From positions 286,914-318,913 of the forward strand of contig NZ_BMYO01000003.1 in the NCBI RefSeq assembly GCF_014652315.1: DNA of 32,000 nucleotides. Direction: 5' to 3'. Source of the DNA: Jeongeupia chitinilytica (lineage in GTDB: Bacteria; Pseudomonadota; Gammaproteobacteria; Burkholderiales; Chitinibacteraceae). Of this stretch, positions 3,481-27,474 are shown piece after piece. A model generated the notes under the pieces. The model was given only the letters and a program-made list of their open reading frames with translations. It was not told the DNA's origin and ran no database searches. Both the position numbers and the translations under genes were made by a program. Each line of letters begins with the position of its first letter. Within the stretch, counting starts at the first letter, position 1.

Positions 3481-3562
3481 AGTCGCGCCGGGCCGGCGGC
3501 GGAGTTTGCTAGAATCGCGGTTTCCTTTCGCGATTGCCGGCCTGCCGGCGATGGTGCACGCC

Positions 3563-4306: not shown

Positions 4307-4313
4307 ACGCGAA

Positions 4314-4347
4314 CAAAAAAAGGCCGGCAATATGCCGGCCTTTTTTA
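4314..4347. terminator. Bidirectional rho-independent terminator between rlmB and lysS
   Basis: A7 run, 9-bp stem AGGCCGGCA / TGCCGGCCT with a 3-nt loop, then T6 run. It lies between two convergent genes. Confidence 0.8.
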
Positions 4348-4359
4348 CGTCCGAAGCAC

Positions 4360-5868: not shown

Positions 5869-5917
5869 CTTGCTTTCCATCAATGCGGGGTCGGTCTCGA
5901 CCCGGTCAGATTCTGGG

Positions 5918-7024: not shown

Positions 7025-7050
7025 GGTCTGTATCGGTCGGAAAACCGGCC

Positions 7051-7056
7051 ATTATA
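7051..7056 (-). promoter_or_regulatory. Candidate -10 box (TATAAT on minus strand) for prfB-lysS
   Basis: The minus strand reads CCGGTATAATGGCC, 27-30 nt upstream of the prfB start. It shares the motif seen upstream of mfd. Confidence 0.3.
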
Positions 7057-7132
7057 CCGGATTGCCCACCCGGATCGGGGCAATGCTTGCGCTCGCCGGC
7101 GGCAATTTTCTCCGGACGGGCCGACGAGCGCG

Positions 7133-7166
7133 ACACAAAAGAAAAGCGGCACCCGCAGGTGCCGCC
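7133..7166 (-). terminator. Rho-independent terminator of the NAD-GDH gene
   Basis: The minus strand reads GCGGCACC-TGCG-GGTGCCGC followed by TTTTCTTTTGTGT, starting about 20 nt after the stop at 7187. Confidence 0.7.
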
Positions 7167-7186
7167 TTCGGTCCGGGCGACGCCGG

Positions 7187-11932: not shown

Positions 11933-12141
11933 TTCAGCCTGCTCTGCGTCGTTGAAGCTGACTTGACTCTATACCCCGACCTATGGCGTCGCCAGACCGG
12001 GTTTTCCTCAACCTTGTTTTCCCCAATCGCTAAAGCGCCACAAGGCCGAAACGCCCATCGGTGTCTCTTTGCCGCCCAGCTGTCGGCAATCAGGATTGAC
12101 CGGCAAATTAACCAAACATTACCATAACCTAATATACGTCA

Positions 12142-14388
12142 ATGACATGCCGGCCCCCCATGCACACCGTACGCGCCCGAACCGAAGCCAGCCCGCAAGC
12201 GGGAACGCTGATCGCCTGCCGCGACCTTGCGCTGGAGATGCTGACCGAGTCGCTGGATGACTTCTTCGAAGAGCTCGAGGAAACGTTCTTCCAGCTCGCC
12301 GAAACGACGACGGAGCGCGGCCTGCGCGACCAGTATTTCGATGCCCGGGTCGAAGCGCGGACCAAGAAGGACGCCATCGTGGCAGCCTTCAAACAGCAGT
12401 TTCTGGCCAGCTTTGAAGCCAGCCTGCAAACGCGCGATCCGCGCAACGAAAGCAGTTTCTACCAGGTCAGCCTGACACCGGACGCGCTGTCGCTGGTGGC
12501 CAACGACGAATACGAAGCTTCGCTGACGCTGAGCAGCGTCACCAATGCCATGCAGCAGAAGGGCGGCGATACGCTGACCCAGCTCGAGCAACGGCTGGCA
12601 ACCCTGCTGCCCGAGCGCAGCGAATCCACCGGGCCACTGAGCCCGAAAGCCATCTGCGAAGCCTTTCTCAATGCCTGCCAGCAGCTTGAAAGCGGCCTGG
12701 CCGCGCGTCTCGTTGCCTTGCGCACATTCGAAACCGAGCTGTCGGGCCGCGTCGCGGGCGTTTATCAGCAGCTCAACCAGTATCTGATCCAGCAGAACGT
12801 TGCACTTCCCGGGTTGACGCGCCGGACCGGCTCGCGGGGCGAGCCGCATACTGCGACATCACAGGCAGGGAGCGATAGTGCGTACGCACCGCAAGGCGAC
12901 TTCGGTGCGAGGGGCGGAGAGGGTACAGGCAGCGCTCCCGTCACGCCGGCATCGTTGTTGCGTCCCGAGCTGATTGCCCACCTGAACCAGCTCTTCTCGG
13001 CCGGCGCGCCATCAACACGGCGCCCGGTTCGCCCGGACTGGTTCAACTTCCTCGATCACCTGCAGCAGGATTCGTTTGGCACCTCGCAGGACCTGTTCGC
13101 CCAGCCGGAAAACCTGCTGGCCCTGCTGCGCGGCAGCCGCTGGACACAGGAACTCGACCGGGTCGACACGATGACGGTCGAACTGGTCACCCTGCTGTTC
13201 GATCGGCTGTTCGACGATACCCGCCTGCCCAGTGCAGCCAAGGGGCTGCTTTCACGCCTGCAGGTGCCGGCCCTGAAAGCCGCCATGCTCGACGCGGGTT
13301 TTTTTAGCGACAAGTCGCACCCGGCGCGACGGCTGATCGACCGGATTGCCGAGGCCAGCCTCGAATGGCAGGAAGAACCGTCCGAAAACGACGCCCGGCT
13401 GCGCAAGTTTGCCGAGCTGATCGCCGAGGTTGCGGCAACCTTCAGCGACGACGCCGGCGTTTTCCAGACGGCACTGGATTCGCTCAATCGCTGGCTCGAA
13501 GCCGAAAGCAGCGCGATCGATGCATCGATCAGCGAGCAGGCAGAAGCACTGCTCGCCGGAGAGATCAGCGAACTGGCGCAGGCCACGGTGCAGGCACTGC
13601 TGGAGCAGCGGCTTCAACCGTCGCACCCGCCCGTTGTCGTCGCCTTCATCTCGGAGCAATGGCATGTCGCGCTTGTGGCAGCCTACGACGCCAGCGGTGA
13701 GTCGGCACCGCTCTTCGTCGAACGACTCGCGGTTGTCGACGACCTGCTGTGGAGTGTCGCCCCCAAGGTCCGTCCGGAAGACCGGTTGCAGCTCGTCAAC
13801 ACCCTCCCGGCCTTGCTCGCCCGGCTTGAAAAAGGCATGCGCGACACCGGGGTAGCCGACGAAGTTCGCAAGGCGTTCTTTGCCGAACTGGTGCAACTGC
13901 ACGCCAGCGCAATCCGCCAGGGCTTGAAACTCGCCCTGACCGTCACAGTGGAAACGGCGCCGCAAGTACCTGCAGCGCGCACGCCCGTGCCGGCCACGCC
14001 GATCGAGCTGGATGTCATCGTCCCGGCACGTCCGGCGACGCCTGAAATCGAGTACATCACCGACGAGCCAGCACCGGTGGAGATCGGCGCTTCACACGCG
14101 TCCGAGCCGGAGACATCCACCGAGCCGGCCGTTGTCGCAGATCTTCTGGCGCGTGGTGACTGGGTCGAATGGTATGACGGCGATGCGCCACCACGGCGCC
14201 TGCGGGTCGGCTGGGTCAGCCCGCAGGGCACCCGCTTCCTGCTGACCAGCCGTACCGACAAGGGCCTGACACTGATGCGGAACGAGGTTGAAGCGCATCT
14301 GGCCAGCGGCGCACTGGTCCGCATCGACCTTGGTGCCGGAGTGACCGAAGACGCATTCAGCCAGTTGCGGGATGCGCTGACCGTCTGA
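12142..14388 (+). CDS. Conserved protein of unknown function, DUF1631-like
   Basis: 748-aa ORF. The N-terminus (...ACRDLALEMLTESLDDFFEELEETFFQLAETTTERGLRDQYFDARVEARTKKDAIVAAFKQQF) and C-terminus (GDWVEWYDG...LRVGWVSPQGTRFLLTSRTDKGLTL) resemble what I remember of the DUF1631 family of beta/gamma-proteobacteria. Family assignment is from memory and needs an HMM search. An alternative start is ATG 12160. Confidence 0.6.
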   Translation: MTCRPPMHTVRARTEASPQAGTLIACRDLALEMLTESLDDFFEELEETFFQLAETTTERGLRDQYFDARVEARTKKDAIVAAFKQQFLASFEASLQTRDPRNESSFYQVSLTPDALSLVANDEYEASLTLSSVTNAMQQKGGDTLTQLEQRLATLLPERSESTGPLSPKAICEAFLNACQQLESGLAARLVALRTFETELSGRVAGVYQQLNQYLIQQNVALPGLTRRTGSRGEPHTATSQAGSDSAYAPQGDFGARGGEGTGSAPVTPASLLRPELIAHLNQLFSAGAPSTRRPVRPDWFNFLDHLQQDSFGTSQDLFAQPENLLALLRGSRWTQELDRVDTMTVELVTLLFDRLFDDTRLPSAAKGLLSRLQVPALKAAMLDAGFFSDKSHPARRLIDRIAEASLEWQEEPSENDARLRKFAELIAEVAATFSDDAGVFQTALDSLNRWLEAESSAIDASISEQAEALLAGEISELAQATVQALLEQRLQPSHPPVVVAFISEQWHVALVAAYDASGESAPLFVERLAVVDDLLWSVAPKVRPEDRLQLVNTLPALLARLEKGMRDTGVADEVRKAFFAELVQLHASAIRQGLKLALTVTVETAPQVPAARTPVPATPIELDVIVPARPATPEIEYITDEPAPVEIGASHASEPETSTEPAVVADLLARGDWVEWYDGDAPPRRLRVGWVSPQGTRFLLTSRTDKGLTLMRNEVEAHLASGALVRIDLGAGVTEDAFSQLRDALTV

Positions 14389-14431
14389 AGCGCCGGGCCG
14401 GGGCTTGTCCCGGTCTGGTAAACTCCGGGGC

Positions 14432-16333
<1,902 letters not shown>

Positions 16334-16340
16334 TCCGTAC

Positions 16341-16371
16341 AAAAAAAGGGAGCCTGCGGGCTCCCTTTTTT
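16341..16371. terminator. Rho-independent terminator after yheS (A7 / T6 flanked, bidirectional shape)
   Basis: Stem GGGAGCC-TGCG-GGCTCCC followed by TTTTTT, 8 nt after the yheS stop. Confidence 0.8.
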
Positions 16372-16400
16372 CATGCGGCATGATCAGTGCCCCCATAAAC

Positions 16401-16433
16401 AAAAACCCCGGCAACTGTCGGGGTTTTTGTTTT
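16401..16433. terminator. Rho-independent terminator after adhE (minus strand), bidirectional shape
   Basis: AAAAACCCCG-GCAACTGT-CGGGGTTTTTGTTTT, immediately downstream of the adhE stop (16446). Confidence 0.75.
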
Positions 16434-16445
16434 CAGCACGGCGAC

Positions 16446-19073
16446 TTACTTCGCCTTGGCTTCTTCGCGCTCGTACGCCTCGACATACGGACGGCCGTAG
16501 TAGCTGTCGAGCAGCAGCTGCTTCAACTCCGAGATCAGCGGGTAGCGCGGGTTGGCACCGGTACACTGGTCATCGAATGCTTCTTCGGCTACTTCGTCGA
16601 GCTTGGCGAGGAACTCCTTCTCCGGCACGCCGGCCGCCTGGATCGACATCGGAATGTCGAGGCAAGCCTTCATCTCGTCCACCCAGGCGATGAGCGACTC
16701 GACCTTCTGGTCGTCGTTCTTGCCCGGCAGACCGAGGTATTCGGCGATGTCGGCGTAGCGGCACTTGCCGATCGGACGGTCGTACTGGCTGAACGCGGTC
16801 TGTTTGGTCGGAATGTCGGCCGAGTTGTAACGGATGACGTTCGAGATCAGCAGGGCGTTGGCCAGGCCGTGCGCCAGATGGAACTCGGCACCGATCTTGT
16901 GCGCCATCGAGTGGCAGACGCCGAGGAATGCGTTGGCAAACGACATGCCGGCAATCGTGGCGGCGTTATGCACCTGTTCACGGGCCTTCGGATCCTTGGC
17001 GCCGTTGGCGTACGAGGAGGGCAGGTAGTCCTTCAGCAGCTTCAGCGCCTGCAGGGCCTGCGGGTCCGAGTACTCGGTCGCCATCACCGAGGCATAGGCT
17101 TCCAGTGCGTGCGTCACCGCGTCGATGCCACCGTAGGCGGTCAGGCTCTTCGGCATGTCCATGACCAGGTTGGCGTCGATGATTGCCATGTTCGGCGTGA
17201 GCTCGTAGTCGGCGATCGGGTACTTCACACCGGTCTTCTCGTCGGTCACCACGGCAAACGGCGTCACTTCCGAACCGGTACCCGAGGTGGTCGGGATCGC
17301 AATCAGCTCGGCCTTCACGCCCATCTTCGGGAACTTGTAGATGCGCTTGCGGATGTCCATGAAGCGCAGGGCCAGTTCTTCGAAGTGGACGTCCGGGTGC
17401 TCGTACATCACCCACATGATCTTGGCCGCATCCATCGGGCTACCGCCGCCCAGTGCGATGATCACGTCCGGCTTGAAGGTGTTCAGCAGCGCTACGCCTG
17501 CACGGACCACTTCCAGCGTCGGATCGGCCGGCACGTCGTAGAACACTTCGACTTCGAGGCCCATCTGCTTGAGGATGCGGATGGTTTCGTCGCAGAAACC
17601 GTTGTTGAACAGGTAGTGGCCGGTGACGATGGCGGCGCGCTTCTTGTTGCTCAGTTCCTCGAGTGCGATCGGCAGGCAACCGCGGCGGAAATAGATGCTC
17701 TTCGGCAGTTTGTGCCACAACATGTTTTCGGCCCTCTTCGCGACGGTTTTCTTGTTGATCAGGTGCTTCGGACCAACGTTCTCGGAGATCGAGTTGCCGC
17801 CCCAGGAACCGCAACCCAGCGTCAGCGACGGCGCCAGCTTGAAGTTGTACAGGTCGCCGATACCGCCTTGCGACGACGGCGTATTGATGAGGATCCGTGC
17901 GGTCTTCATCTTGTCGCCGAAGTAGTTGATACGCTCGCCCTGCAGATCCTGATCGGTATACAGCGAGGAGGTGTGGCCGATGCCGCCCAGCGCGACCAGC
18001 GCCTCGGCCTTGGTCACTGCATCGTAGAAGTCCTTGGCGCGGTACATGCCCAGCACCGGGCTCAGTTTTTCGTGCGCGAAGGCTTCTTCTTCACCGACCG
18101 ACGTCACTTCACCGATCAGTACCTTGGTGTACGGCGGCACCTTGACGCCGGCCATCTCGGCGATCTTGATTGCGGACTGGCCGACAATGTTGGCATTCAG
18201 GCCGCCATTGATCAGGATGACTTTGCGGACTGCTTCGGCGTCCTTTTTGCTAAGGATGTGGCCACCGTTCTTCGAGAAGCGCTCCTTGGCAGCTTCATAG
18301 ACTTCGTCGACGATGATCACGGCCTGTTCGGACGCGCAGACCACGCCGTTGTCGAAGGTCTTCGACATCAGGATCGACGCCACCATGCGCTTGATGTCGG
18401 CGGTTTCGTCAACGACGACCGGGGTGTTGCCGGCACCGACGCCGATCGCCGGCTTGCCGGACGAATAGGCGGCCTTGACCATGCCCGGACCACCGGTCGC
18501 GAGGATCAGGTTCACATCCGGGTGCTTCATCAGGTGATTCGACAGCTCGACGCTCGGTGCATCGATCCAGCCGATGATGTCGCGGGGCGCACCGGCAGCA
18601 ACAGCGGCCTCGAGCACCAGACGCGCAGCGGCGTTGGTCGAATCCTTGGCGCGCGGGTGCGGGCTGAAGATGATGCCGTTGCGGGTCTTCAGCGAAATCA
18701 GCGCCTTGAAGATCGCGGTCGACGTCGGGTTGGTCGTCGGGACGATGCCACAGATGATGCCGATCGGCTCGGCGATGGTGATCGTGCCGAACGCATCGTC
18801 GGTCGACAGTATCCCGCAGGTCTTTTCGTCCTTGTAGGCGTTGTAGATGTATTCCGATGCGAAGTGGTTCTTGATGACCTTGTCTTCAAGCACGCCCATG
18901 CCGGTTTCGGAAACCGCTTGCTTGGCCAGCGGAATGCGCGCATCGGCAGCAGCCAGCGCCGCACAGCGGAAGATGTTGTCGACTTGCTCCTGGGTATAGG
19001 TTGCAAACAGTTGCTGCGCTTTTTTGACACGGGCAACCAGTGCGTCGAGTTCTTGCACCGAGGTAACGGCCAT
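16446..19073 (-). CDS. adhE: Bifunctional acetaldehyde-CoA / alcohol dehydrogenase
   Basis: 875-aa ORF with an N-terminal aldehyde dehydrogenase domain and a C-terminal iron-type alcohol dehydrogenase domain (..GGGSPMDAAKIMW.., ..HSMAHKIGAEFHLAHG..). Length and order are typical of AdhE. Confidence 0.95.
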   Translation of the reverse strand: MAVTSVQELDALVARVKKAQQLFATYTQEQVDNIFRCAALAAADARIPLAKQAVSETGMGVLEDKVIKNHFASEYIYNAYKDEKTCGILSTDDAFGTITIAEPIGIICGIVPTTNPTSTAIFKALISLKTRNGIIFSPHPRAKDSTNAAARLVLEAAVAAGAPRDIIGWIDAPSVELSNHLMKHPDVNLILATGGPGMVKAAYSSGKPAIGVGAGNTPVVVDETADIKRMVASILMSKTFDNGVVCASEQAVIIVDEVYEAAKERFSKNGGHILSKKDAEAVRKVILINGGLNANIVGQSAIKIAEMAGVKVPPYTKVLIGEVTSVGEEEAFAHEKLSPVLGMYRAKDFYDAVTKAEALVALGGIGHTSSLYTDQDLQGERINYFGDKMKTARILINTPSSQGGIGDLYNFKLAPSLTLGCGSWGGNSISENVGPKHLINKKTVAKRAENMLWHKLPKSIYFRRGCLPIALEELSNKKRAAIVTGHYLFNNGFCDETIRILKQMGLEVEVFYDVPADPTLEVVRAGVALLNTFKPDVIIALGGGSPMDAAKIMWVMYEHPDVHFEELALRFMDIRKRIYKFPKMGVKAELIAIPTTSGTGSEVTPFAVVTDEKTGVKYPIADYELTPNMAIIDANLVMDMPKSLTAYGGIDAVTHALEAYASVMATEYSDPQALQALKLLKDYLPSSYANGAKDPKAREQVHNAATIAGMSFANAFLGVCHSMAHKIGAEFHLAHGLANALLISNVIRYNSADIPTKQTAFSQYDRPIGKCRYADIAEYLGLPGKNDDQKVESLIAWVDEMKACLDIPMSIQAAGVPEKEFLAKLDEVAEEAFDDQCTGANPRYPLISELKQLLLDSYYGRPYVEAYEREEAKAK

Positions 19074-19159
19074 GGTGTATCTCCTTGGTTTTCACGGACT
19101 TGCTTGGCTGATGCGATACGGAAGGGACAACCAACCGGACCCAAATCATTTCGTAGTCA

Positions 19160-19199
19160 TATTAATCCCTGAGCGCCACGATAGTTTGATCTGGATCAA
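19160..19199 (-). promoter_or_regulatory. adhE promoter: perfect FNR/Anr-type box TTGAT-N4-ATCAA plus candidate -10
   Basis: TTGATCTGGATCAA at 19186-19199 is a perfect match to the FNR consensus half-sites. The minus strand reads TAATAT at 19160-19165. This places the box centre roughly 40 nt upstream of a predicted start site (class II geometry). adhE is classically induced under anaerobiosis. Confidence 0.55.
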
Positions 19200-19222
19200 G
19201 TCGCAATCTGCAATTAGTTACA

Positions 19223-19250
19223 GAGTCGTATAATGTATATTATGTCAAGT
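19223..19250 (+). other. dif-like XerC/XerD recombination site, left prophage junction (attL; probably the functional chromosomal dif)
   Basis: GAGTCGTATAA-TGTATA-TTATGTCAAGT compared with E. coli dif GGTGCGCATAA-TGTATA-TTATGTTAAAT (from memory). The central hexamer is identical, the XerD arm matches 9/11 and the XerC arm 7/11. Confidence 0.7.
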
Positions 19251-19252
19251 TA
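19232..19252 (+). repeat. Left copy of the 21-bp perfect direct repeat (att core)
   Basis: AATGTATATTATGTCAAGTTA is identical to 26385-26405. The flanking bases differ on both sides. Confidence 0.95.
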
Positions 19253-19345
19253 CATCCTAATCCTGATCGGACTGACCCGATTTCGAGCCCATCAAGCCCA
19301 CCCCGTTTTCAGCCCTCTTTAGCCGCACTTTCTTGTGCCGAAATA

Positions 19346-19374
19346 ACAACAGCCGCCCGATGGGCGGCTGTTGT
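19346..19374 (+). terminator. 13-bp perfect hairpin at the dif-proximal phage end (candidate terminator of the repressor gene in the circular form)
   Basis: ACAACAGCCGCCC-GAT-GGGCGGCTGTTGT. It lacks a strong T-run on the plus strand, so a function as terminator, attenuator or structural element is uncertain. Confidence 0.4.
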
Positions 19375-19393
19375 ACTTCTAGGGAGAAAAACA

Positions 19394-19861
19394 ATGAAAA
19401 TGAACGTACCGACCGCTCAATACAAAGTCTCAACGCAGGATCTCATCTTCGCCATCACCAGTTTGCCGCCGTCTACGGTCGCCGATGTATGCGGCGTCGG
19501 CATCGATCAGGTGCAACGGTGGAAAGTCGGTGCCGATCCGCTGCCGTTCGCCGTCTACCAGCTGTTGCGGTTTTTCGGCATGCGAACGGTCCCCAGTGGA
19601 TTCGGCGCGTGGTCTGGCTGGCGATTCACCGAGGACACGATCATCCCGCCCGGTGGCGGCCGACGAGATGGCGCGCGGATACAGGACGTGATGTTTATCC
19701 GGCACTGGTACATCGATCGGCAGCTTCTCGAGAGGCAATCGAACCTGATCGACGATCTGACGCGGCAGCTCGACTTCTACAAGCGTCAGTGCACGCTGGA
19801 AGCCCGTTACGGGCTGATGCTCGCCACGCTATTCGGCAATGGCGGCCATCTGGCAACTTAG
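19394..19861 (+). CDS. Small phage protein, putative HTH regulator (DUF3653-like, from memory)
   Basis: 155-aa ORF with SD GGGAG 8 nt upstream. HTH-like segment SLPPSTVADVCGVGIDQVQRWKVG followed by a GWRF...IIPPGG segment. Homologous to the N-terminal ~148 aa of ORF 26507 (shared SLPP.T.A...G, .GFG...G.R., NLI..L....DFY.RQC....RYG). Confidence 0.6.
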   Translation: MKMNVPTAQYKVSTQDLIFAITSLPPSTVADVCGVGIDQVQRWKVGADPLPFAVYQLLRFFGMRTVPSGFGAWSGWRFTEDTIIPPGGGRRDGARIQDVMFIRHWYIDRQLLERQSNLIDDLTRQLDFYKRQCTLEARYGLMLATLFGNGGHLAT

Positions 19862-20376
19862 TTTGATAGCTCAGCCTGCGGCTTCGCCTCCTGCGGCCGC
19901 GGGATCAGCAACGCTTGCCGTAGCTGGTCGACCGACGGGTTTTGCCGGAATCTCAGGGTTTTGATGCCGGCCTCGCCCAGAAAGGCGTCGCGCTCGGCGT
20001 CCTTGTCCAGCTTGCTGTTGTGGGTCGAGTCGTCCAGCTCGATGACGGCCAGTACACTGAAATCCTTCTTGCAGACCACGAAGTCGGCCGACTTCTGGCT
20101 GATTCGCTTGAACTTGGCGTAGTTCTCCTTTTGGCTTCCGCCCTTGGCAACGACCAGCTGCGAAAAAGATACCTGAGCCAGAACGATGTGATCGGGAGAA
20201 AGCGCTTCGACCAAGCGGAAGTAAACCGGCTGTTCACGCTCGGTTAGCACGGGCTTCCGCTGGAAGCGCGACGAACCGGTAGAGGCTCCCTTCCCTGCCC
20301 CGTTTTTCTTCATCACCGTGCCAAGGACGGCAGCAACCACGACCATCAGGACAGCAAAAGCCAATGCGCCAAGCAT
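19858..20376 (-). CDS. N-terminally membrane-anchored DUF2726 / PD-(D/E)xK-like nuclease-fold protein
   Basis: Strong SD AAGGAGG 5 nt before ATG 20376 (the track GTG 20382 is less likely). One N-terminal TM helix (LGALAFAVLMVVVAAVLGTV) is followed by a basic stretch (KKNGAGKGAS..RFQRKP), which implies a cytoplasmic domain. The core ...LSPDHIVLAQVSF...SADFVVCKKDFSVLAVIELDDSTHNSKLDKDAERDAFL..AGI has the D...E.D...H/K arrangement I associate with DUF2726. Confidence 0.65.
   Translation of the reverse strand: MLGALAFAVLMVVVAAVLGTVMKKNGAGKGASTGSSRFQRKPVLTEREQPVYFRLVEALSPDHIVLAQVSFSQLVVAKGGSQKENYAKFKRISQKSADFVVCKKDFSVLAVIELDDSTHNSKLDKDAERDAFLGEAGIKTLRFRQNPSVDQLRQALLIPRPQEAKPQAELSN
19875..20325. 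repeat. 451-bp direct repeat, copy 1 (about 93% identical to 26964-27414)
   Basis: Hand alignment at a constant offset of 7089 bp gave about 33 mismatches and no indels. It covers most of the nuclease-like gene. Confidence 0.9.
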
Positions 20377-20442
20377 AATCACCTCCTTTTCAAAGGTGGA
20401 AAGCTTGGCACAACGGGCGAGGAAGCTGCAAAAGGTTGTGCG

Positions 20443-20541
20443 TGAGGGGTGAACCGCGCGACCGCGCGGCCGGGACGCCCCGGCCCCTCATGGCACCGTA
20501 GCGGACTGCTACGGCCTTGGGTCTGCAGTTAACGACTGCAG
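20443..20541. other. Highly structured phage intergenic region (Y-shaped GC-rich multi-hairpin plus two further hairpins); candidate packaging signal, origin or terminator
   Basis: Outer stem TGAGGGG (20443-49) / CCCCTCA (20484-90) encloses CCGCGCG..CGCGCGG (20454-69) and CCGGG-ACGC-CCCGG (20470-83). Then CCGTAGC-GGACT-GCTACGG (20496-514) and CTGCAG-TTAACGA-CTGCAG (20523-41). Confidence 0.45.
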
Positions 20542-20669
20542 GCGTCCCACGATGGCGCGCTGTAGCCGCATGACCACCATGCCCAAAAGTCTGCGCGGCG
20601 ATCCTGCTCGGATTTGTCCAGGTGCGCACAACCGGTCAGCATCAGCGCGATCAGCGCGGCGCGGATCAT
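20529..20669 (-). CDS. 46-aa predicted lipoprotein, translationally coupled to zot
   Basis: MIRAALIALMLTGCAHLDKSEQDRR... has a lipobox L-T-G-C after a short hydrophobic signal. Its ATG overlaps the zot stop (ATGA at 20666-20669). Confidence 0.55.
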   Translation of the reverse strand: MIRAALIALMLTGCAHLDKSEQDRRADFWAWWSCGYSAPSWDACSR

Positions 20670-21730
20670 GCCGACACCTTCAAGGTCGTGACTTTGGTCT
20701 CGACCGGCGCGGGTGGCTGACTGGAGACCTGCACCGGGGTCGTCGTAGTGTTCTGCATCGGCTGCTGCCCGGGTTTCCACGGCAGGTAGATCCCGTTGCG
20801 GACGATATTCTCGCACATGTCCTTGTCCATCTGGACCGGCGTGCCTTGATCGGTGTAGCACTTGCAGCCCTTGGCGCTCGATACGCACGCCTGCGGCGCG
20901 GGGACACTTTGCGGTTTGGTCAGGTCGTCGTATTCAGGCGCGGTATGCGGCAGGCCGGCGATACGCGGCTGCTGGTCCTGTACCCACTGCTCGAGCGTGC
21001 GGTGCTCGTTCCTTCGGTCGTCGCGGGATGCGCTCGATATCGCCTTGCCGTGCGACTGCGGCGCTGAGGCTTCGGCTGTCGGCGTTGAGCCCGGCGCAAA
21101 CTTGTGGTCGAAATTGGCGAACCACCGGTAGGCCATGAAGCCGAGCACGGCCAATGCGATCGGCAGCAGGCAGAACAGCCAGAACTTCATCGGAATCCGC
21201 GCTTTGTACGTATCGAGCTCGGTCGATTTGTACTTGCCGAACAGCACCTTCGGATAACTCCAGTCGTGCCGCACCGAATCCTTGGTGGACTTGTCGCAGT
21301 TATCGCGGCACTTGTTCCACTCGTGCACGACAGCGCGGCGCATGTTGAACGTACGGTTGACGTGGAAATGCCGGCCGACGAGTCGTCGAACGTTGCCATC
21401 AATCAGTAGCGGGTGCTGCGTAGTAATCCAGAGGTCGACGCCCATGTGCCGGTGCGTTTCCAGCTCGGACACGCACTTGGGGACGGCCGAGCCGTTGGCG
21501 CGGGGCCGGAACAGCCGCTGGCATTCGTCAATGACGATGATTGCGCCCTTGGGGCAGTTGAACCACTCGGCTTCGTTGTCGAGCTTTGTCCAGGGCAGAT
21601 ACACCTCGTCAAGGATTTCGAGTCCGGCATAGAACACGGGGCGGTTCTCTTTCTCGGCTTGGGCCTTGACCTCTTGGACCATCCGCAGCGTTTTGCCTGC
21701 GCCGGGCAGGCCTGTTGTCATGATGATCAT
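20666..21730 (-). CDS. zot: Zot-like / pI-type filamentous phage assembly ATPase
   Basis: MIIMTTGLPGAGKT (Walker A at the extreme N-terminus) and AIIVIDECQ (Walker B). A central TM segment (FWLFCLLPIALAVLGFMAY) precedes the C-terminal periplasmic part. ATG 21730 overlaps the upstream gene stop (ATGA). Confidence 0.85.
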   Translation of the reverse strand: MIIMTTGLPGAGKTLRMVQEVKAQAEKENRPVFYAGLEILDEVYLPWTKLDNEAEWFNCPKGAIIVIDECQRLFRPRANGSAVPKCVSELETHRHMGVDLWITTQHPLLIDGNVRRLVGRHFHVNRTFNMRRAVVHEWNKCRDNCDKSTKDSVRHDWSYPKVLFGKYKSTELDTYKARIPMKFWLFCLLPIALAVLGFMAYRWFANFDHKFAPGSTPTAEASAPQSHGKAISSASRDDRRNEHRTLEQWVQDQQPRIAGLPHTAPEYDDLTKPQSVPAPQACVSSAKGCKCYTDQGTPVQMDKDMCENIVRNGIYLPWKPGQQPMQNTTTTPVQVSSQPPAPVETKVTTLKVSA

Positions 21731-22026
21731 TTGGTCACCAGCTTCTTGATGGAGCCGGACTGCAGGCCACTGATGAGTAGGCGCGCCGAGCAAGCCGAGA
21801 ACAGCATCGAGACGCAGATATCGACCTTCATCGCCCCCATGATCGCCGCGACGTCACTGGGCACGGACTGCAGATAGTTGGTTGACTGCGCCAGTGCCCA
21901 GTCGAGCATGGCCGAGAAGCCGGTATAGGTGGCGAAGCCGAAGCCAAGGCCGATCAGGACACGACCGGCAAGGCTTGCGGCGACTTCAATCAACGCGCCA
22001 ATCAGCGCGGCAATAATCATTGGCAT
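21727..22026 (-). CDS. pVI-like minor coat / membrane protein
   Basis: 99-aa hydrophobic protein (MPMIIAALIGALIEVAASLAGRVLIGLGFGFATYTG...) located directly between the pIII-like gene and zot, the canonical gVI position. Confidence 0.5.
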   Translation of the reverse strand: MPMIIAALIGALIEVAASLAGRVLIGLGFGFATYTGFSAMLDWALAQSTNYLQSVPSDVAAIMGAMKVDICVSMLFSACSARLLISGLQSGSIKKLVTK

Positions 22027-22030
22027 GGGG

Positions 22031-23398
22031 TTACCTCACAACGATGAAGACGCAAGCGATGAACGTAATGGCAACGAGGATGTTGCCGAGGACCTGCAGC
22101 CACGAGCACATGCCCGAGAGCGGCATCGTTACCGAGTGCCCCATCAGGCTGAATGACTTGTCGGACGGACAGCCGCCGGACAGGAATCGGTCCTGCTTGA
22201 ATGCCCGTGACAAGTCGCGGTCACCGATATTGAGTGAGTCGCGCACTTCCTGATCCGATTTGCCGACTGCATCGTTGCCTTTCTTGGACCAGTCGTTTTC
22301 CTTGGTCATTGCGCAATAGGATTGCCAATTGACCTTGGCAATTTCACAACCAACAACATCATCGGACTCACATTTAAACGAATCACAACCACCGGAAACG
22401 TTACTTTTTTCCTTTGTCTTGCAAATCGGAGAGGTTGGATTGAGCTTGCAATACTGATCAACTCGGTCCGTCGTAGTCTGAGTAGTCGTACCAGTCGGGC
22501 CTGTCGTATTAGTCGTCTGAGTTACCGTGCCATCAGGATTGGCAGTGGTTGTAGTTGTCGTAGTTTCAGAAGTTGTAGTGCCATCCGGTCGTGTTGTCGT
22601 ATTCGTACCAGTGGTCTGAGTTTGAGTGCCGGTCGAGTTAGGAACACATTGAGTTGCTCCATTCATTGTCACGCTACCCATTGCCTTTTCAGCGCACGAT
22701 GACTCTGTTTCACTGCCGGGGCTAGCACTATCACCAGTTTGATTACCCGCCTCGCCAGTAAAGGTCGCAACTACGCCTTTGGCGAAATAGCATTTTTTTA
22801 CACCATCAACAGGGGCGCAATAGTAATCAGACGACGACAGAGAAACCTTGCATCCCTCAAAACTACACGCCATCGCACCTTTACCAACGCAGGACCCAGT
22901 GTAACCACCAGCAGCAATTGTTTGGCCCGCTTTTGACGCGCACGGGTTCTGACAAACGCCGTTGATAAGCTGCTCTCCCGCTGGGCATTTCTGCTGGCAC
23001 TTACCCCCAACCAGTTCTTGCCCAGACGGACAGCCGCAATTGCCGGTAACCGGGTCCTGCGTTTGTCCGGACGGGCACGTATTAGTGCAAGCGGCATTGG
23101 GCAACACCAGATTATCGGGAGCACATTGTTTTCTAACGCTACCCACGTTTGCACCGGATAAATCAAGGCACAGCCCCGCGCCCATTGAAACGGAGTACGA
23201 ACTGGAACGCTTGGCCTTGCATGCCTGCAATGGGTCTGAATTGCAATACGGGTAGTTGGCCGAAGTTGGAGTGCCACTGCCCGCGCAGTAATAATCGGCA
23301 TATGCCAACCCGGAGGCCCATGACGTGGCAATCAGGAAAAAATAAGCCAGCACGCTCCGCAAATTGAGACGATGTAGAACCAGCCATCCATTTTTCAT
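22031..23398 (-). CDS. pIII-like adsorption / minor coat protein
   Basis: I prefer ATG 23398 (MKNGWLVLHRLNLRSVLAYFFLIATSWASGLAYA, signal-peptide-like; SD GGAG upstream). Cys-rich N-terminal part with repeated C-P-x-G-Q modules, a Thr-rich low-complexity linker (TGTQTQTTGTNTTTRPDGTTTSETTTTTTTANPDGTVTQTTNTTGPTGTTTQTTT), and a C-terminal anchor LQVLGNILVAITFIACVFIVVR. In the gIII position after the major coat gene. Confidence 0.65.
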   Translation of the reverse strand: MKNGWLVLHRLNLRSVLAYFFLIATSWASGLAYADYYCAGSGTPTSANYPYCNSDPLQACKAKRSSSYSVSMGAGLCLDLSGANVGSVRKQCAPDNLVLPNAACTNTCPSGQTQDPVTGNCGCPSGQELVGGKCQQKCPAGEQLINGVCQNPCASKAGQTIAAGGYTGSCVGKGAMACSFEGCKVSLSSSDYYCAPVDGVKKCYFAKGVVATFTGEAGNQTGDSASPGSETESSCAEKAMGSVTMNGATQCVPNSTGTQTQTTGTNTTTRPDGTTTSETTTTTTTANPDGTVTQTTNTTGPTGTTTQTTTDRVDQYCKLNPTSPICKTKEKSNVSGGCDSFKCESDDVVGCEIAKVNWQSYCAMTKENDWSKKGNDAVGKSDQEVRDSLNIGDRDLSRAFKQDRFLSGGCPSDKSFSLMGHSVTMPLSGMCSWLQVLGNILVAITFIACVFIVVR

Positions 23399-23411
23399 TT
23401 CTCCAATCTCC

Positions 23412-23443
23412 GGAAAATAAAAAAGGGCGAGTTGCCCCGCCCT
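23412..23443 (-). terminator. Rho-independent terminator/attenuator immediately after the major coat gene
   Basis: The minus strand reads AGGGCG-GGGCAACT-CGCCCT followed by TTTTTTATTTT. A terminator between gVIII and gIII is classical in filamentous phages. Confidence 0.65.
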
Positions 23444-23462
23444 GCAATCGGCTTTTGACCGA

Positions 23463-23672
23463 TTAGCGGCCCATGGCACTGGCGATCCACGGCCAGACCT
23501 TGATACCGATCTTGACGCCGAGGTAGGCCGCACCGACCACGCCGATTGCCGCAACGGCTTCGGTCATCCCGGTCGTTACCGACGTGGTATCGATTGCAGC
23601 TTGTGCACCGGCAGCGGACAGAGCAGCAACGCCAGCACCGGCGCGCACGAAGAAACGTTTGGTTTTATTCAT
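23463..23672 (-). CDS. Major coat protein (pVIII-like, Xf/Pf class)
   Basis: SD GAGGTG precedes ATG 23672. Signal peptide MNKTKRFFVRAGAGVAALSAAGAQA, then a ~44-aa mature peptide AIDTTSVTTGMTEAVAAIGVVGAAYLGVKIGIKVWPWIASAMGR. It has an acidic/polar N-terminus, a hydrophobic core and a basic C-terminus. The GIKV..W....AM tail resembles the Xanthomonas Xf coat as I recall it. Confidence 0.75.
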   Translation of the reverse strand: MNKTKRFFVRAGAGVAALSAAGAQAAIDTTSVTTGMTEAVAAIGVVGAAYLGVKIGIKVWPWIASAMGR

Positions 23673-23883
23673 CTGAATCACCTCTATGGTTGAATAGTTG
23701 AGCGAGGGCACGAATTACGGCTCCGGCACCCCAACAGGTGACGATTGCCATTGCTACCAGCTTGCCCTCATCGCTGGTCATTTCAAAAAATCCGGGCGAC
23801 GAAATTGCCAATTGGCAAGGGCCTGATGCGGCCATTGCACGGACAATTCCGTCGGCGGCAATTTCGACGCATTGCGTGACCAT
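23665..23883 (-). CDS. Small phage protein with one hydrophobic segment (gVII/gIX position)
   Basis: SD AGGA precedes ATG 23883 (MVTQCVEIAADG...KLVAMAIVTCWGAGAVIRALAQL...). It overlaps the coat gene start by 8 nt. Function is inferred only from position. Confidence 0.4.
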   Translation of the reverse strand: MVTQCVEIAADGIVRAMAASGPCQLAISSPGFFEMTSDEGKLVAMAIVTCWGAGAVIRALAQLFNHRGDSDE

Positions 23884-23891: not shown

Positions 23892-24107
23892 CTAGTGAAC
23901 GTTCGGTAAAGCGCACGAGAAGATGACGAACTCACCGCCGAGCACACTGACCGCCGTATCGAATGCGTCCTGATATTCCGGAAACGGACCCGCATTGATG
24001 ATCAGCTTGGTGAATCCCACATCGCCTTCATGCGGACACAGGAACTTGCCCGTATCCGTGTCCTGGACGAAGTACACCGGCCGATAAGCCGGGGCACTCA
24101 TGATCAA
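23892..24107 (-). CDS. Small hypothetical phage protein (71 aa)
   Basis: ORF coupled by an ATGA overlap (24104-24107) to the upstream gene. No recognisable motif. Confidence 0.4.
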   Translation of the reverse strand: MIMSAPAYRPVYFVQDTDTGKFLCPHEGDVGFTKLIINAGPFPEYQDAFDTAVSVLGGEFVIFSCALPNVH

Positions 24108-24430
24108 CCCTGCTTGACTTCACCGATCTGGCGATTCAGGCCAGTGCCGGTGATGGGCTTGTAACCGACCACGACCGTTTTCTGGGTGCGGCCACTGGTC
24201 ACCAGTTCCAGCTCGAGTTCCGCCTCATGCGGATACGACATGCTCTTCATCGACTGGAACAGGCTTTCGTCCTTGTACTTGTATTCATTGACGGCAAAGC
24301 CCTTTGCGGTGCCGCGCGATTCATCCAGCGCGGTTTCCACAAACAGCGTGGTCTGATTGATGACCTGTCCGTCGATCGTGCCATTGAAGCCCTTGACGCC
24401 GAGTACCTTAGCTTGAGTCTTGAAACGCAT
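24104..24430 (-). CDS. Candidate ssDNA-binding protein (gV / RstB position)
   Basis: 108-aa ORF 13 nt downstream of Rep. Size and position fit inovirus ssDNA-binding proteins, and the sequence looks beta-rich. There is no motif-level proof. Confidence 0.45.
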   Translation of the reverse strand: MRFKTQAKVLGVKGFNGTIDGQVINQTTLFVETALDESRGTAKGFAVNEYKYKDESLFQSMKSMSYPHEAELELELVTSGRTQKTVVVGYKPITGTGLNRQIGEVKQG

Positions 24431-24443: not shown

Positions 24444-25910
24444 TTAAAAGGGCGCAGCATTGCCACTAATCCGCGATTGCGCCTTGAACGCGGGGACAGT
24501 AATTTCCGGATTGTTGAGCGACATCAATTCGCTCCAAGTCATGTATTGCTTGTATTCAGCGTGCATCGGCTCAGGACTGACATTGAAATCAGCCACTTTG
24601 AAGCGCGGTGGAATCTTGTCGGTACGCATGATCAATTGCATTGCCTTGTCGGCATCGCGTCCGCACATTTCCCAGATCATCCAGATATGGCATCCGAACT
24701 GATGCTGGACGATTTCAACCGATTTATTCAGGTCGATTTCCTTTTGCACCCGGTAGCCGGTGATCCGCTCGCATTTGTGATCGGCGATCCATTGCAGCGC
24801 CGGATACGTTCCCGCGAGGTACGCACCCGCTTTGAGCAGCACCTCAAACGGGATGACGCAGCCGTCGTTTTTCAGCTCGACTTCGACCCGCAGCCATGGG
24901 TGCCACTTGTGGCCCAGCTGCATGCCCTTTTCGTAGATACGCGCGTAACGCGAGCTGGCACGTGTGCCGATATAGACCGTCCGACCAGTGCCGTCCGGAT
25001 ACTCCCAGTCTCCCCTGCCCTCGTACTTGGGCCGGCGACCACCGTTCATGAAGAAACCGTTGCGATGGTCATCACGGGCTTGCTCGACGCTGTAGTGCTT
25101 GCCCTCGACGTCGTCGTACGCCAAGTCACAACGGGTGATCCGAGGGCGTACCGCTTGCTCGCTCAAGAAGTCATAGAGCCGTTGTTCCCACCCTGCTTTC
25201 GCGGCCTGCAGACCCGTACCGCTGACCATCAGCAGCATCGTGTCCTCTTGACCACCAATGCCGACCGTTCCCCAGTCGTCGCCGAGGATGTAGGTGGACG
25301 TGTAGTAGTTGCGCAGCTTGTGGTCGGTCTTGGACGTGACGCCGAAGCCGAAAATCTGTTCCAGCTTCATGCTGAGGGCCATGACGAGCACCTCGTCATC
25401 GACCTTGTCGCCCTCTTGGGTGATCGCTGTAGGACGAACTCCGGGCAACCCGGTCAGGTCATCGACGAACGACTGGGAGCCGAACACCCGGTACGCCGAC
25501 AGGTACTGGTTCGCCGTCGATTTGTGGATCGTGATGTTGATCCAGTCAATGAAGGCCGCGTCATCACCATGACCGTGCCGTTTTGGCACCTGGAGGAGAT
25601 TCCCCCGGTCATCAATCACGAGGGTGATGAACTCCGGTTCGCTCTCCGGCGCCACCTTTTCCCCCATGTTATTAGGGGGGGAAGTCCCCGCGCCGCCCGC
25701 CTGCGCGTCGGCTGCGCCTGCCGCGACGGCCGCCCGGCGCTTGGACTGACGCACAAACTCGCCGGCCAAGTAGTTGACATAACCGGCCCGAAAACCCCGC
25801 TCAGTCGGCACGTAAACGGCCTTGGCGCTGTCGGCCGTGACTTCGGCACGATTTGCGGCCTCGTCGGCACGGCTCACTGCTGGCTGAATAGCGCGGATTT
25901 TGCGGGGCAT
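24444..25910 (-). CDS. Rolling-circle replication initiation protein (RstA / Rep_trans type)
   Basis: Segments AFIDWINITIH, RITRCDLAYDD, TVYIGTRASSRYARIYEKG and WLRVEVELKN match the conserved blocks of the replication initiation factor family used by CTXphi-, Xanthomonas- and Ralstonia-type inoviruses (from memory). Confidence 0.85.
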   Translation of the reverse strand: MPRKIRAIQPAVSRADEAANRAEVTADSAKAVYVPTERGFRAGYVNYLAGEFVRQSKRRAAVAAGAADAQAGGAGTSPPNNMGEKVAPESEPEFITLVIDDRGNLLQVPKRHGHGDDAAFIDWINITIHKSTANQYLSAYRVFGSQSFVDDLTGLPGVRPTAITQEGDKVDDEVLVMALSMKLEQIFGFGVTSKTDHKLRNYYTSTYILGDDWGTVGIGGQEDTMLLMVSGTGLQAAKAGWEQRLYDFLSEQAVRPRITRCDLAYDDVEGKHYSVEQARDDHRNGFFMNGGRRPKYEGRGDWEYPDGTGRTVYIGTRASSRYARIYEKGMQLGHKWHPWLRVEVELKNDGCVIPFEVLLKAGAYLAGTYPALQWIADHKCERITGYRVQKEIDLNKSVEIVQHQFGCHIWMIWEMCGRDADKAMQLIMRTDKIPPRFKVADFNVSPEPMHAEYKQYMTWSELMSLNNPEITVPAFKAQSRISGNAAPF

Positions 25911-26010: not shown

Positions 26011-26487
26011 GTGAACACGCTTAACGAAATCTTGGATTCAGCGAAAGAATCCATCGGGACGACGCAAGACCAAGAACTTGCAAGGAAGCTCGGAATCGGG
26101 CAATCAACACTCAGCGGATACCGACACGGTAAGAGTACGCCTGACGCCTATGCGCTTATGCAGCTGTCAGCCGTACTGAAAAAAGATGCTCGCGAGCTAC
26201 TCGCCGTGATCGAAGCCGAACGCGCTAAAACTGAGGAAAGACGGGGCTACTGGGAGGGGCTCAAGACCCAATTTCGAAAAAGCTCGAAGACGCTGGGTGC
26301 CTTGGCGGCGGCTGCCCTAGTCCTAGCGTTCGCGCCTAGCGATCAACATATTTACATGTTTGCTTTCACGGAGCTGAGCGCACCAATGTATATTATGTCA
26401 AGTTATCTACTCGAATGGCTCGACAGACTGCTCAAATCACTCCTTACGCCGAAGAAAGAAAACCCCCGCTGGTCGGGGGTTTTTTAA
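26011..26487 (+). CDS. XRE/cI-type HTH repressor-like protein with a hydrophobic C-terminal half; the ORF runs through the att/dif core
   Basis: SD AGGAG lies 6 nt before GTG 26011. HTH segment TQDQELARKLGIGQSTLSGYRHGKSTP. Hydrophobic segment TLGALAAAALVLAFAP. Codons SAPMYIMSSY are encoded by the dif-like site 26376-26405. Confidence 0.7.
   Translation: MNTLNEILDSAKESIGTTQDQELARKLGIGQSTLSGYRHGKSTPDAYALMQLSAVLKKDARELLAVIEAERAKTEERRGYWEGLKTQFRKSSKTLGALAAAALVLAFAPSDQHIYMFAFTELSAPMYIMSSYLLEWLDRLLKSLLTPKKENPRWSGVF
26376..26403 (+). other. Second dif-like site (attR-type hybrid with a degenerate phage-derived XerC arm)
   Basis: GAGCGCACCAA-TGTATA-TTATGTCAAGT. The central region and XerD arm are identical to site 1. 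The left arm matches the dif XerC arm only when shifted by 1 nt (TGAGCGCACCA vs GGTGCGCATAA, 7/11). Confidence 0.65.
26385..26405 (+). repeat. Right copy of the 21-bp perfect direct repeat (att core)
   Basis: AATGTATATTATGTCAAGTTA is identical to 19232-19252. Confidence 0.95.
26455..26486 (+). terminator. Rho-independent terminator at the end of the repressor-like ORF
   Basis: CCCCCG-CTGGT-CGGGGG followed by TTTTTT, with an A-rich run upstream. It occupies the same relative position as hairpin 19346-19374 in the first module. Confidence 0.6.
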
Positions 26488-26506: not shown

Positions 26507-27211
26507 ATGAAGAGCAAAACTCTGCTTCCGCTCCCGGTGTTCGACTTCGCGCCGGCACCGAATCCGTCCGAGACCTTGATGATGATCCGCAGCCTGCCGC
26601 CGGCGACGCTCGCCGAGTCGATGGGCATCGAGGTCGACGAGCTCGAGTGCTACGCCCGCGGCCGGAAGAAAATCACCCGGATGGTCTACGCCTTCATCCG
26701 TTGCGTGACTGGGGCCGAATTGCCGGCAGGCTTTGGCGAGTTCGCCGGGATGCGCATCGAGCGCGGCCGGATCATCGCTCGGCCGAACCAGCACCACAGC
26801 TGTGGCATCCGCTATGACGACCTGGTGCACATGGAGTATCTACGCACCTGTGGCGAGCTGGCCAAGGGTCAGGCGAACCTGATCGAGCGACTGAGCAAAG
26901 AGCGCGATTTCTATCGCCGGCAGTGCTCAAAGGATTCGCGCTACGGGATGCCCGTCGGCTCTACCTGCGGCTTAGCTTCCTGCGGCCGCGGGATCGGCAA
27001 CGCTTGCCGGAGCTGGTCGACTGACGGGATTTGCCGGAATCGCAGGGTTTTGATGCCGGCCTCGGCCAGAAAGGCATCGCGCTCGGCGTCCTTGTCCAGC
27101 TTGCTGTTGTGGATCGAGTCGTCCAGCTCGATGACGGCCAAAACGCTGAAATCCTTCCTGCAGTCTACGAAGTCGGCAGACTTCTGGCTGATCCGCTTGA
27201 ACTTGGCGTAG
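26507..27211 (+). CDS. Diverged paralog of the small HTH/DUF3653-like protein; the stop codon present in the prophage copy (19859-19861) has no counterpart, so the ORF reads 270 nt into the convergent gene
   Basis: The first ~148 aa align with ORF 19394 (SLPPATLAESMGIEVDEL, AGFGEFAGMRI, NLIERLSKERDFYRRQCSKDSRYG). After about 26950 the frame continues antisense to the nuclease-like gene. The true 3' end is uncertain, and it may be decaying. Confidence 0.5.
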   Translation: MKSKTLLPLPVFDFAPAPNPSETLMMIRSLPPATLAESMGIEVDELECYARGRKKITRMVYAFIRCVTGAELPAGFGEFAGMRIERGRIIARPNQHHSCGIRYDDLVHMEYLRTCGELAKGQANLIERLSKERDFYRRQCSKDSRYGMPVGSTCGLASCGRGIGNACRSWSTDGICRNRRVLMPASARKASRSASLSSLLLWIESSSSMTAKTLKSFLQSTKSADFWLIRLNLA

Positions 27212-27474
27212 TTCTCCTTCTGGCTGCCGCCCTTGGCAACGACCAGCTGCGAAAAAGATACCTGAGCCAGAACGATGTGATCGGGAGAAAGCGCCTCAAC
27301 CAGGCGGAAGTAGGCCGGTTGTTCGCGTTCGGTCAGCACGGGCTTGCGCTGAAAGCGTGACGAGCCGGTAGAGGCTCCCTTCCCTGCCCCGTTTTTCTTC
27401 ATCACCGTGCCAAGTACGACGGTAACCACAATCAAAACAGCCAGGAGGGCGCAAAAACACGCGCCACGGGCCAT
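26941..27474 (-). CDS. Second copy of the membrane-anchored DUF2726 / PD-(D/E)xK-like protein
   Basis: SD GAGG precedes ATG 27474. 177 aa with the same TM anchor plus core (SADFVDCRKDFSVLAVIELDDSIHNSKLDKDAERDAFL). About 93% nucleotide identity to 19875-20325 by hand count. Confidence 0.65.
   Translation of the reverse strand: MARGACFCALLAVLIVVTVVLGTVMKKNGAGKGASTGSSRFQRKPVLTEREQPAYFRLVEALSPDHIVLAQVSFSQLVVAKGGSQKENYAKFKRISQKSADFVDCRKDFSVLAVIELDDSIHNSKLDKDAERDAFLAEAGIKTLRFRQIPSVDQLRQALPIPRPQEAKPQVEPTGIP
26964..27414. repeat. 451-bp direct repeat, copy 2
   Basis: See copy 1 (19875-20325). Constant offset of 7089 bp. Confidence 0.9.

Follow-up and report, generated by a model that had tools for sequence, protein, structure and literature searches.

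In many pathogens, virulence and the plasticity of the genome bear the mark of filamentous prophages at dif, and their small accessory loci are an emerging source of defence genes. In the CTX-I filamentous prophages of Vibrio, rstR and xafT are the fixed terminal genes (PMC12715192), and the slot between zot and xafT, called pHVR, is an accessory hotspot enriched in defence genes; degraded elements that retain hotspot cargo have been described there as well (PMC12715192, PMC11630473). XafT (VC1465) of the Vibrio cholerae phage TLCphi joins a helix-turn-helix (HTH) domain, DUF3653 and a dimerisation domain, binds XerD and activates it without FtsK (PMC6744903, PMC9226527), and XafT/DUF3653 proteins adjoin dif in many integrative mobile elements that exploit Xer (IMEXs; PMC6744903). 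SNIPE is a membrane-anchored nuclease, with its N-terminus out and its catalytic domain in, which cleaves phage DNA during entry while its tether protects the chromosome (PMC13190303). Here we analyse a 32,000-nucleotide stretch of Jeongeupia chitinilytica DNA (hereafter the window), which carries a 7.15-kb integrative filamentous prophage at a chromosomal dif site, and in particular two convergent genes of that prophage, ORF A and ORF B (ORF, open reading frame). In our overall explanation, to which we give an even chance, ORF A would be an XafT-type Xer helper of this dif prophage, and ORF B a single-gene membrane nuclease that would exclude incoming DNA.

The locus resembles pHVR in several respects: ORF B lies in exactly the same slot, the content of the slot varies from one related phage to another, a second copy of the nuclease gene outside the prophage recalls the degraded elements that keep their cargo, and DUF2726, the family of ORF B, also occurs in the slot of Vibrio inoviruses. 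It differs in its host, the betaproteobacterium Jeongeupia, in its phage lineage, and in that the slot here is a single 172-amino-acid (aa) gene. The zot-xafT hotspot setting has already been published for Vibrio, and DUF2726 is already annotated there in deposited inovirus records. Among the deposited inoviruses that carry the gene are Vibrio phage Vaf1 and elements of Vibrio cyclitrophicus, PQ189324 for one; in PQ189324 it comes after the assembly genes and before a PD-T7-4 defence gene. The pHVR papers (PMC12715192, PMC11630473) do not address the function of DUF2726. What is new here is a new host lineage for a known kind of prophage accessory slot, with an uncharacterised passenger family.

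Two convergent genes between attL and zot

A sequence-only reading of this DNA had proposed two genes between an att site and the morphogenesis genes, converging with stop codons that overlap by 4 nt. Both are real ORFs, the coordinates agree with ours, they do lie between a dif-like att site (19222-19252) and zot (20666-21793), and the order is that of the Vibrio slot: zot, ORF B (19858-20376), ORF A (19394-19861). Both proteins match those of Jeongeupia chitinilytica at 100%, which identifies the host.

19394..19861, plus strand: ORF A, 155 aa, read as an XafT-family protein; XRE-type HTH, DUF3653 motif (GFGAWSGWRF) and a long C-terminal helix
19858..20376, minus strand: ORF B, 172 aa; N-terminal membrane helix followed by a DUF2726 (Vsr/DUF559-like PD-(D/E)xK) domain

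As called, ORF B runs from a GTG (19858-20382, minus strand, 174 aa), but with a near-perfect Shine-Dalgarno sequence (AAGGAGGTGA) 3 nt upstream of the ATG at 20376, the true start is almost certainly this ATG and the product has 172 aa. The product matches Pfam DUF2726 (PF10881) at 71.9 bits (cut-off 24.7; E = 5e-20), an alignment that takes in 122 of the model's 126 positions. It also scores 31.4 bits for DUF559, where the cut-off is 20.6; its other Pfam matches are weak ones to MTES_1575 and a pneumovirus matrix protein. Within the PD-(D/E)xK superfamily, DUF2726 is grouped with Vsr and DUF559 (PMC3424549). The nuclease motif quoted in the sequence-only reading, SADFVVCKKDFSVLAVIELDDSTHNSK, is present in ORF B. 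An alignment of 32 sequences shows no variation at residues E48, D98, E113, D115, D116 and H119 (172-aa numbering). ORF B also has every one of the columns E, Q-V, D (in ADF), E-L-D-D, H and D, whose conservation across 174 relatives is at least 97%.

The same reading had called ORF B a DUF2726-like nuclease with an N-terminal membrane helix, a description in which the Pfam score supports the family and the predicted structure the helix. AlphaFold2 (mean predicted local distance difference test score, pLDDT, 87.7) models a helix at residues 2-25, a flexible basic linker and an alpha-beta-beta-beta-alpha-beta core. The best 17-residue Kyte-Doolittle window in the helix scores 2.9 and is followed by KK. 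An N-terminal hydrophobic helix is present in 88 of 90 homologues, and lysine and arginine are commoner after the helix than before it in 86 of the 90, a charge bias from which the positive-inside rule would place the nuclease domain in the cytoplasm (N-out/C-in). When the model was compared with the Protein Data Bank (PDB) using Foldseek, the top matches were all PD-(D/E)xK nucleases (BsaXI, PvuRts1I, TnsA, VRR_NUC), with probabilities up to 0.92, but none was significant. The likeness to Vsr and DUF559 proteins extends from the above-cut-off DUF559 match to the D ... E-x-D ... H signature and to the naming of homologues as 'very-short-patch-repair endonuclease' by several sources; ORF B departs from them in being membrane-anchored and carried on mobile elements, with no linked cytosine methyltransferase and no sequence-detectable solved structure. 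Given the solid DUF2726 match, we assign ORF B as a putative membrane-anchored restriction-endonuclease-fold protein of this family.

The closest curated model for ORF A is NCBIfam VC1465_fam (NF040522; E = 1.1e-10, 41.6 bits), which matches residues 26-98 over model positions 12-83 of 111 and so spans both the HTH and the DUF3653 parts. ORF A shares with XafT the fused architecture of an XRE-type HTH and DUF3653, and also the placement beside a dif-like att site: its ATG at 19394 is 142 nt from the end of attL (19252), with the repressor at the other end of the prophage, a layout shared with the CTX-I prophages of Vibrio. AlphaFold2 (pLDDT 94.7) predicts a four-helix XRE-like domain, a small beta-hairpin at W-S-G-W-R-F and a helix of about 50 residues (102-153), which is predicted to be dimerising, as in XafT, and which makes ORF A about 45 aa longer than XafT. 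Foldseek gave only weak matches for ORF A, all of them to lambda cI/XRE HTH domains and none significant. A word-indexed homologue search with ORF A returned only ORF A itself. An exhaustive profile search, built on both copies in the window and run over 1.8 billion proteins at E <= 0.001, defined a small family of 60 relatives (representatives), mostly of about 120-190 aa. Among the 53 relatives scanned, 41 match VC1465_fam (best 9.4e-31) and 11 match DUF3653.

We read ORF A as the XafT-family integration helper of the element and, since it is of the XafT family and adjoins attP (PMC6744903, PMC12715192), as part of the lysogeny module and not cargo. Most likely, by analogy with XafT of TLCphi, ORF A would activate the host XerD so that the phage could recombine with dif without FtsK. 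The sequence-only reading had set both genes outside the inovirus core; this applies to ORF B, which is accessory, while ORF A instead appears to belong to the integration module.

Some observations count against this assignment. The VC1465_fam match falls short of the curated cut-off of 70 bits, so ORF A is a superfamily relative and not a member of the curated subfamily, and the Pfam DUF3653 match (19.4 bits, residues 72-103) is under its 22.4-bit cut-off, which makes the earlier label 'DUF3653-like' a fair one. In the attP it is the XerC-type arm that deviates, and the XerD-type arm is canonical; in TLCphi the situation is reversed, with an attP deviant in the XerD arm (PMC9226527). Finally, there is PSB15, a DUF3653 protein of the Xanthomonas phage phiLf-UK, which binds the packaging signal through a WAGFXF motif and is dispensable for integration (bioRxiv 10.1101/2024.03.19.585677).

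ORF A could accordingly be a PSB15-type factor, which would bind the packaging signal and bring phage DNA to the inner membrane for assembly, and not an Xer activator. The two proteins come from integrative, XerCD-using filamentous phages and share a DUF3653-type W-x-G-[FW]-x-F motif (WSGWRF in ORF A), and a cluster of hairpins (20454-20541) lies near ORF A. We nonetheless think this unlikely: the HTH and DUF3653 are fused in ORF A as in XafT, whereas PSB15 has an N-terminal DUF3653 with the HTH encoded by a separate gene (bioRxiv 10.1101/2024.03.19.585677); ORF A has no counterpart of the basic, lipid-binding C-terminal tail of PSB15, its own C-terminus being non-basic (...LFGNGGHLAT) and its isoelectric point 9.06 against 10.5-11.4 for PSB15; and the best curated match of ORF A is VC1465_fam.

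A separable nuclease gene and its distribution

The sequence-only reading had taken the two genes for a cargo cassette and had pointed to the same pair at 26507-27474 as a copy selected independently of the phage. A second pair does exist there.

26507..27211, plus strand: second XafT-like ORF, 234 aa, outside the prophage; over its first ~155 aa it shares 30% identity with ORF A
26941..27474, minus strand: second DUF2726 gene, apparently a relic copy; 87% protein identity to ORF B

The nucleases of the two pairs are close (87% protein and about 93% DNA identity), and the second still matches Pfam DUF2726 at 64.8 bits, but their partners share only 30% identity and the high-identity block comprises the nuclease ORF alone. 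The second XafT-like ORF begins 102 nt past attR and has lost the equivalent stop, reading on through the antisense of the nuclease gene; it represents a different XafT lineage from ORF A. Synonymous divergence (dS) between the two nucleases is about 0.30 and the ratio of nonsynonymous to synonymous divergence (dN/dS) in the core is 0.08, which indicates diverged alleles under strong purifying selection; a recent duplication is rejected on this dS and on the 30% identity of the partners. The outer nuclease has nevertheless acquired two substitutions at near-invariant positions, V to D where 171 of 174 relatives have V, I or L, and T to I where 173 of 174 have S or T. No third dif-like site that would make the second pair an intact mini-element is present in the window. 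Lying outside attR, with no second att site, a lost stop and these two substitutions, the second pair looks like a decaying relic and not like a unit selected in its own right.

We surveyed the neighbourhoods of nuclease relatives in the best 80 of at least 491 genome loci that encode them. For the XafT-like neighbour screen, the second XafT-like ORF was shortened to exclude its antisense nuclease part, and a family profile was added; apparent phmmer matches of the second protein in 21 loci had proved false, arising from the antisense nuclease translation in the 234-aa ORF. A convergent XafT-like neighbour within 300 nt was found in only 3 of the 80 genome loci (L033, L046 and L051) and in none of 65 viral contigs. 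All-against-all clustering of flanking ORFs revealed no conserved neighbour family across 79 genome loci.

These counts bear on whether ORF A and ORF B work together as a two-gene cassette, a unit on which selection acts and which is retained independently of the phage. For such a cassette speak the two occurrences of the convergent arrangement in the window and its recurrence by dif in Povalibacter (L046), Propionivibrio (L051) and a Pseudomonas metagenome-assembled genome (MAG; L033), apparently without other phage genes. Yet the convergent neighbour is rare, the nuclease of other inoviruses is found next to the repressor or Rep, or else after zot, and an XafT-like gene is the normal terminal gene of such elements whatever their cargo (PMC12715192). 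The rarity of the arrangement, together with the contrast between 87% identical nucleases and 30% identical partners, argues that the two genes are not a unit, and we consider a cassette very unlikely. A role for ORF A as an antitoxin of ORF B was also rejected, since no conserved partner is seen from locus to locus and the match of ORF A is to an Xer-factor family. Varied positions, the ORF-limited identity block, and copies on plasmids and at unrelated chromosomal sites are what would be expected of slot cargo exchanged horizontally, and we suggest that ORF B is a separate, single-gene mobile accessory module in the variable zot-xafT slot.

The nuclease family, with proteins of 150-200 aa, is spread across beta- and gammaproteobacteria. 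Inovirus hallmark genes occur in 16 of the 80 genome loci, and a dif-like site within 10 kb in 12, against 2 matches in shuffled sequence. In IMG/VR, 65 viral contigs encode relatives (fetched stretches of 16.1 kb or less for 60 of them), and 58 of the 65 carry inovirus hallmark genes. Relatives were also found in 213 plasmid records, mainly from Acinetobacter, Escherichia, Vibrio and Pseudomonas (85 conjugative, 75 mobilizable), and the family can therefore be described as general cargo of mobile elements.

Within inoviruses the position of the gene varies: it follows zot/pI/pIV in 6 loci and in 13 it is divergent from Rep, on the repressor side. In four unrelated inoviruses DUF2726, divergent from Rep, shares its strand with the repressor gene and abuts it or overlaps with it.

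L063, 8120-8898: DUF2726 abutting the repressor gene
L104, 6702-7506: DUF2726 abutting the repressor gene
L072, 9995-10975: DUF2726 abutting the repressor gene
L105, 7577-8690: DUF2726 abutting the repressor gene

This is the classic position of lysogen-expressed exclusion genes, and the 13 repressor-side and 4 repressor-abutting loci make expression of the nuclease in the lysogen plausible.

Two further arrangements of the genes were seen. In a tandem array of one inovirus (L107, IMG/VR UViG_2882106972_000001, 1298-14265), each unit carries DUF2726 and an XafT-like gene on the same strand, facing zot, a gene order unlike that of the window. In the Povalibacter MAG (L046, 9989-11390) and the Propionivibrio MAG (L051, 9935-11201), a chromosomal gene is followed by DUF2726 converging on an XafT-like gene and then by a dif-like site, the arrangement of the window's second pair; at these two loci other phage genes were not detected, nor was a second att or dif-like site beside the nuclease gene. 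They may reflect either a recurrent route of prophage decay or a domesticated stub, and one possibility is that the XafT and DUF2726 stubs beside dif in the window, L046 and L051 are domesticated guards of dif that the host keeps.

Prophage borders and remaining features

The prophage is bounded by an exact 21-nt repeat, AATGTATATTATGTCAAGTTA, at 19232-19252 and 26385-26405, 7153 nt apart, whereas chance would give no such repeat. What attL and attR have in common is the central region together with the right, XerD-type arm (TTATGTCAAGT), and the left, XerC-type arm alone differs (AGTCGTATAA versus GAGCGCACCAA). Cumulative GC skew over window positions 1-20000 peaks at about 6.5-11.5 kb and then falls, which, with the dif-like site at 19.2 kb, is consistent with a window at the replication terminus.

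19222..19252, no strand: attL, left prophage border; dif-like AGTCGTATAA-TGTATA-TTATGTCAAGTTA with ATAA-N6-TTATG geometry
19347..19372, plus strand: GC-rich hairpin (AACAGCCGCCC / GGGCGGCTGTT) upstream of ORF A, read from the sequence
20454..20541, no strand: cluster of four consecutive GC-rich hairpins with perfect 7-bp stems, between the lipoprotein-like ORF and the start of ORF B
20529..20669, minus strand: lipoprotein-like ORF, 46 aa, with a textbook signal (MIRAALIALMLTGC, then AHL...)
20666..21793, minus strand: zot/pI-like assembly ATPase, the final core gene ahead of the accessory slot (Pfam Zot E = 1.1e-19; PHROG 197 E = 3.4e-76)
21727-22026: DUF2523 gene, between attL and attR
22031-23554: pIII-like gene, between attL and attR
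23463-23711: coat gene, between attL and attR
24104-24430: single-strand-binding-like gene, between attL and attR
24444..25910, minus strand: Rep_trans rolling-circle replication initiator (Pfam Rep_trans E = 2.9e-30; PHROG 453 E = 1.1e-77)
26011..26487, plus strand: HTH repressor gene, which crosses attR (Pfam HTH_3 and Phage_CI_repr; PHROG 638)
26375..26405, no strand: attR, right prophage border; GAGCGCACCAA-TGTATA-TTATGTCAAGTTA, inside the repressor ORF

No deposited phage was matched when the whole prophage region was searched by megablast; the phage can be recognised at protein level only, and the prophage Zot is less than 40% identical to that of any deposited phage (Ralstonia, Xanthomonas and Stenotrophomonas inoviruses compared). 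The last ~27 codons of the prophage form of the repressor ORF (26011-26487, plus strand) are supplied by the neighbouring relic. As the ORF crosses attR, a reading of the frames suggests that the repressor would have different C-termini in the prophage and in the circular phage, where it would end in the sequence beyond attL. The hairpin at 19347..19372, which has a counterpart 5' of the second XafT-like gene (26462-26487), probably terminates the repressor transcript when the phage is circular. The hairpin cluster at 20454-20541 could be a packaging signal, a minus-strand origin or terminators; as single-strand DNA, the 283-nt hairpin region folds better than its shuffles (z = -2.4). The ATG of the 46-aa lipoprotein-like ORF overlaps the zot stop (ATGA), which suggests translational coupling, and relatives of this ORF were not found in any fetched locus.

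Possible functions of the membrane-anchored nuclease

By analogy with SNIPE, the most likely function of ORF B is exclusion of incoming DNA at the inner membrane, a proposal that draws on the conserved catalytic residues, the membrane tether, the frequent repressor-side placement of the gene and its carriage by competing mobile elements. ORF B would sit in the inner membrane of the lysogen with its domain facing the cytoplasm and would cut foreign DNA during entry, the candidate substrates being plasmid DNA, DNA that a phage injects and, for a superinfecting filamentous phage, its naked single strand; the membrane tether would keep it away from the nucleoid. A single predicted N-terminal membrane helix, with a charge bias that fits an N-out, catalytic-in topology, is what ORF B would have in common with SNIPE, and it suggests the same location-based logic of telling self from non-self. 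The two also differ: SNIPE is much larger and combines DUF4041 with a GIY-YIG nuclease, whereas ORF B has a PD-(D/E)xK, Vsr-like domain, no DUF4041 and no sequence relationship to SNIPE. At 172 aa it has no room for DUF4041, and so it can be an analogue of SNIPE at most, not a member of that family.

In a narrower form of this proposal, the DUF2726 nuclease would be a minimal exclusion system of one gene, specialised for filamentous phages and for other elements that arrive at the inner membrane as DNA. The outgoing single strands of the resident phage would then be spared because the phage DNA-binding protein coats them, and the chromosome because it is out of the nuclease's reach. We put this forward tentatively and hold it to be rather doubtful.

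Several results weigh against exclusion as the function of ORF B, or against its reading as a nuclease. No Foldseek match of ORF B reaches E <= 0.001, and a profile of the nuclease family detected no solved relative among PDB sequences. PADLOC has no model for ORF B, and its scan of the four proteins yielded only chance-level DpdF matches, so that ORF B belongs to no catalogued defence family. The sequence-only reading had stated that no role was described for such a protein in a filamentous phage, and the 8 papers of the searched library that mention DUF2726 bear this out: none of them concerns a filamentous phage, and none reports an experiment on a DUF2726 protein of the ORF B type. In this prophage, ORF B follows the assembly genes on their strand, so it may be expressed with them and not in the lysogen; no promoter was predicted. 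About 55 of the 80 genome copies have no phage, dif or clear defence-island context; many of them flank housekeeping genes, and known defence proteins are few among the chromosomal neighbours, most of which are housekeeping.

ORF B might instead serve the phage's own life cycle at the membrane, processing DNA during entry, replication or extrusion, or resolving the Holliday junction of Xer integration at the septum. The near-restriction of virus-borne copies to inoviruses (58 of 65 contigs) and the enrichment of the gene near dif would fit such a role, as would the control of XerCD-dif recombination by the septum-anchored translocase FtsK (PMC9226527). However, the gene takes varied positions in inoviruses, many copies are on plasmids or at phage-free chromosomal sites, and the relic copy has been kept under purifying selection without a phage; we regard a life-cycle role as very improbable.

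Another alternative is a toxin-like effector, which would kill on loss of the element as an addiction module or, once released or activated, degrade host DNA in abortive infection. Accessory loci of filamentous prophages carry toxin-antitoxin genes more often than any other cargo (PMC11630473), SNIPE becomes toxic when its membrane helix is removed (PMC13190303), and relatives of ORF B are frequent on plasmids. Against this, no conserved antitoxin-like neighbour was found across the genome loci surveyed, and the many solitary copies among housekeeping genes fit poorly with a toxin that nothing neutralises; a toxin-like role therefore seems improbable to us, and exclusion of incoming DNA remains the function we favour.

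At the level of annotation, the XafT-family identity of ORF A helps to mark the borders of dif-integrated elements beyond Vibrio and Xanthomonas, and our survey marks one uncharacterised family, combining a membrane helix with a Vsr-like nuclease domain, as a recurrent passenger of inoviruses and plasmids. The DUF2726 nuclease is also a very small and easily tested candidate. If ORF B does act in exclusion, it would be the first case of nuclease-based superinfection exclusion in inoviruses to be described, a SNIPE counterpart of 170 aa on a different fold, and the location-based principle by which SNIPE separates self from non-self would extend to a second nuclease fold and to competition between filamentous phages.

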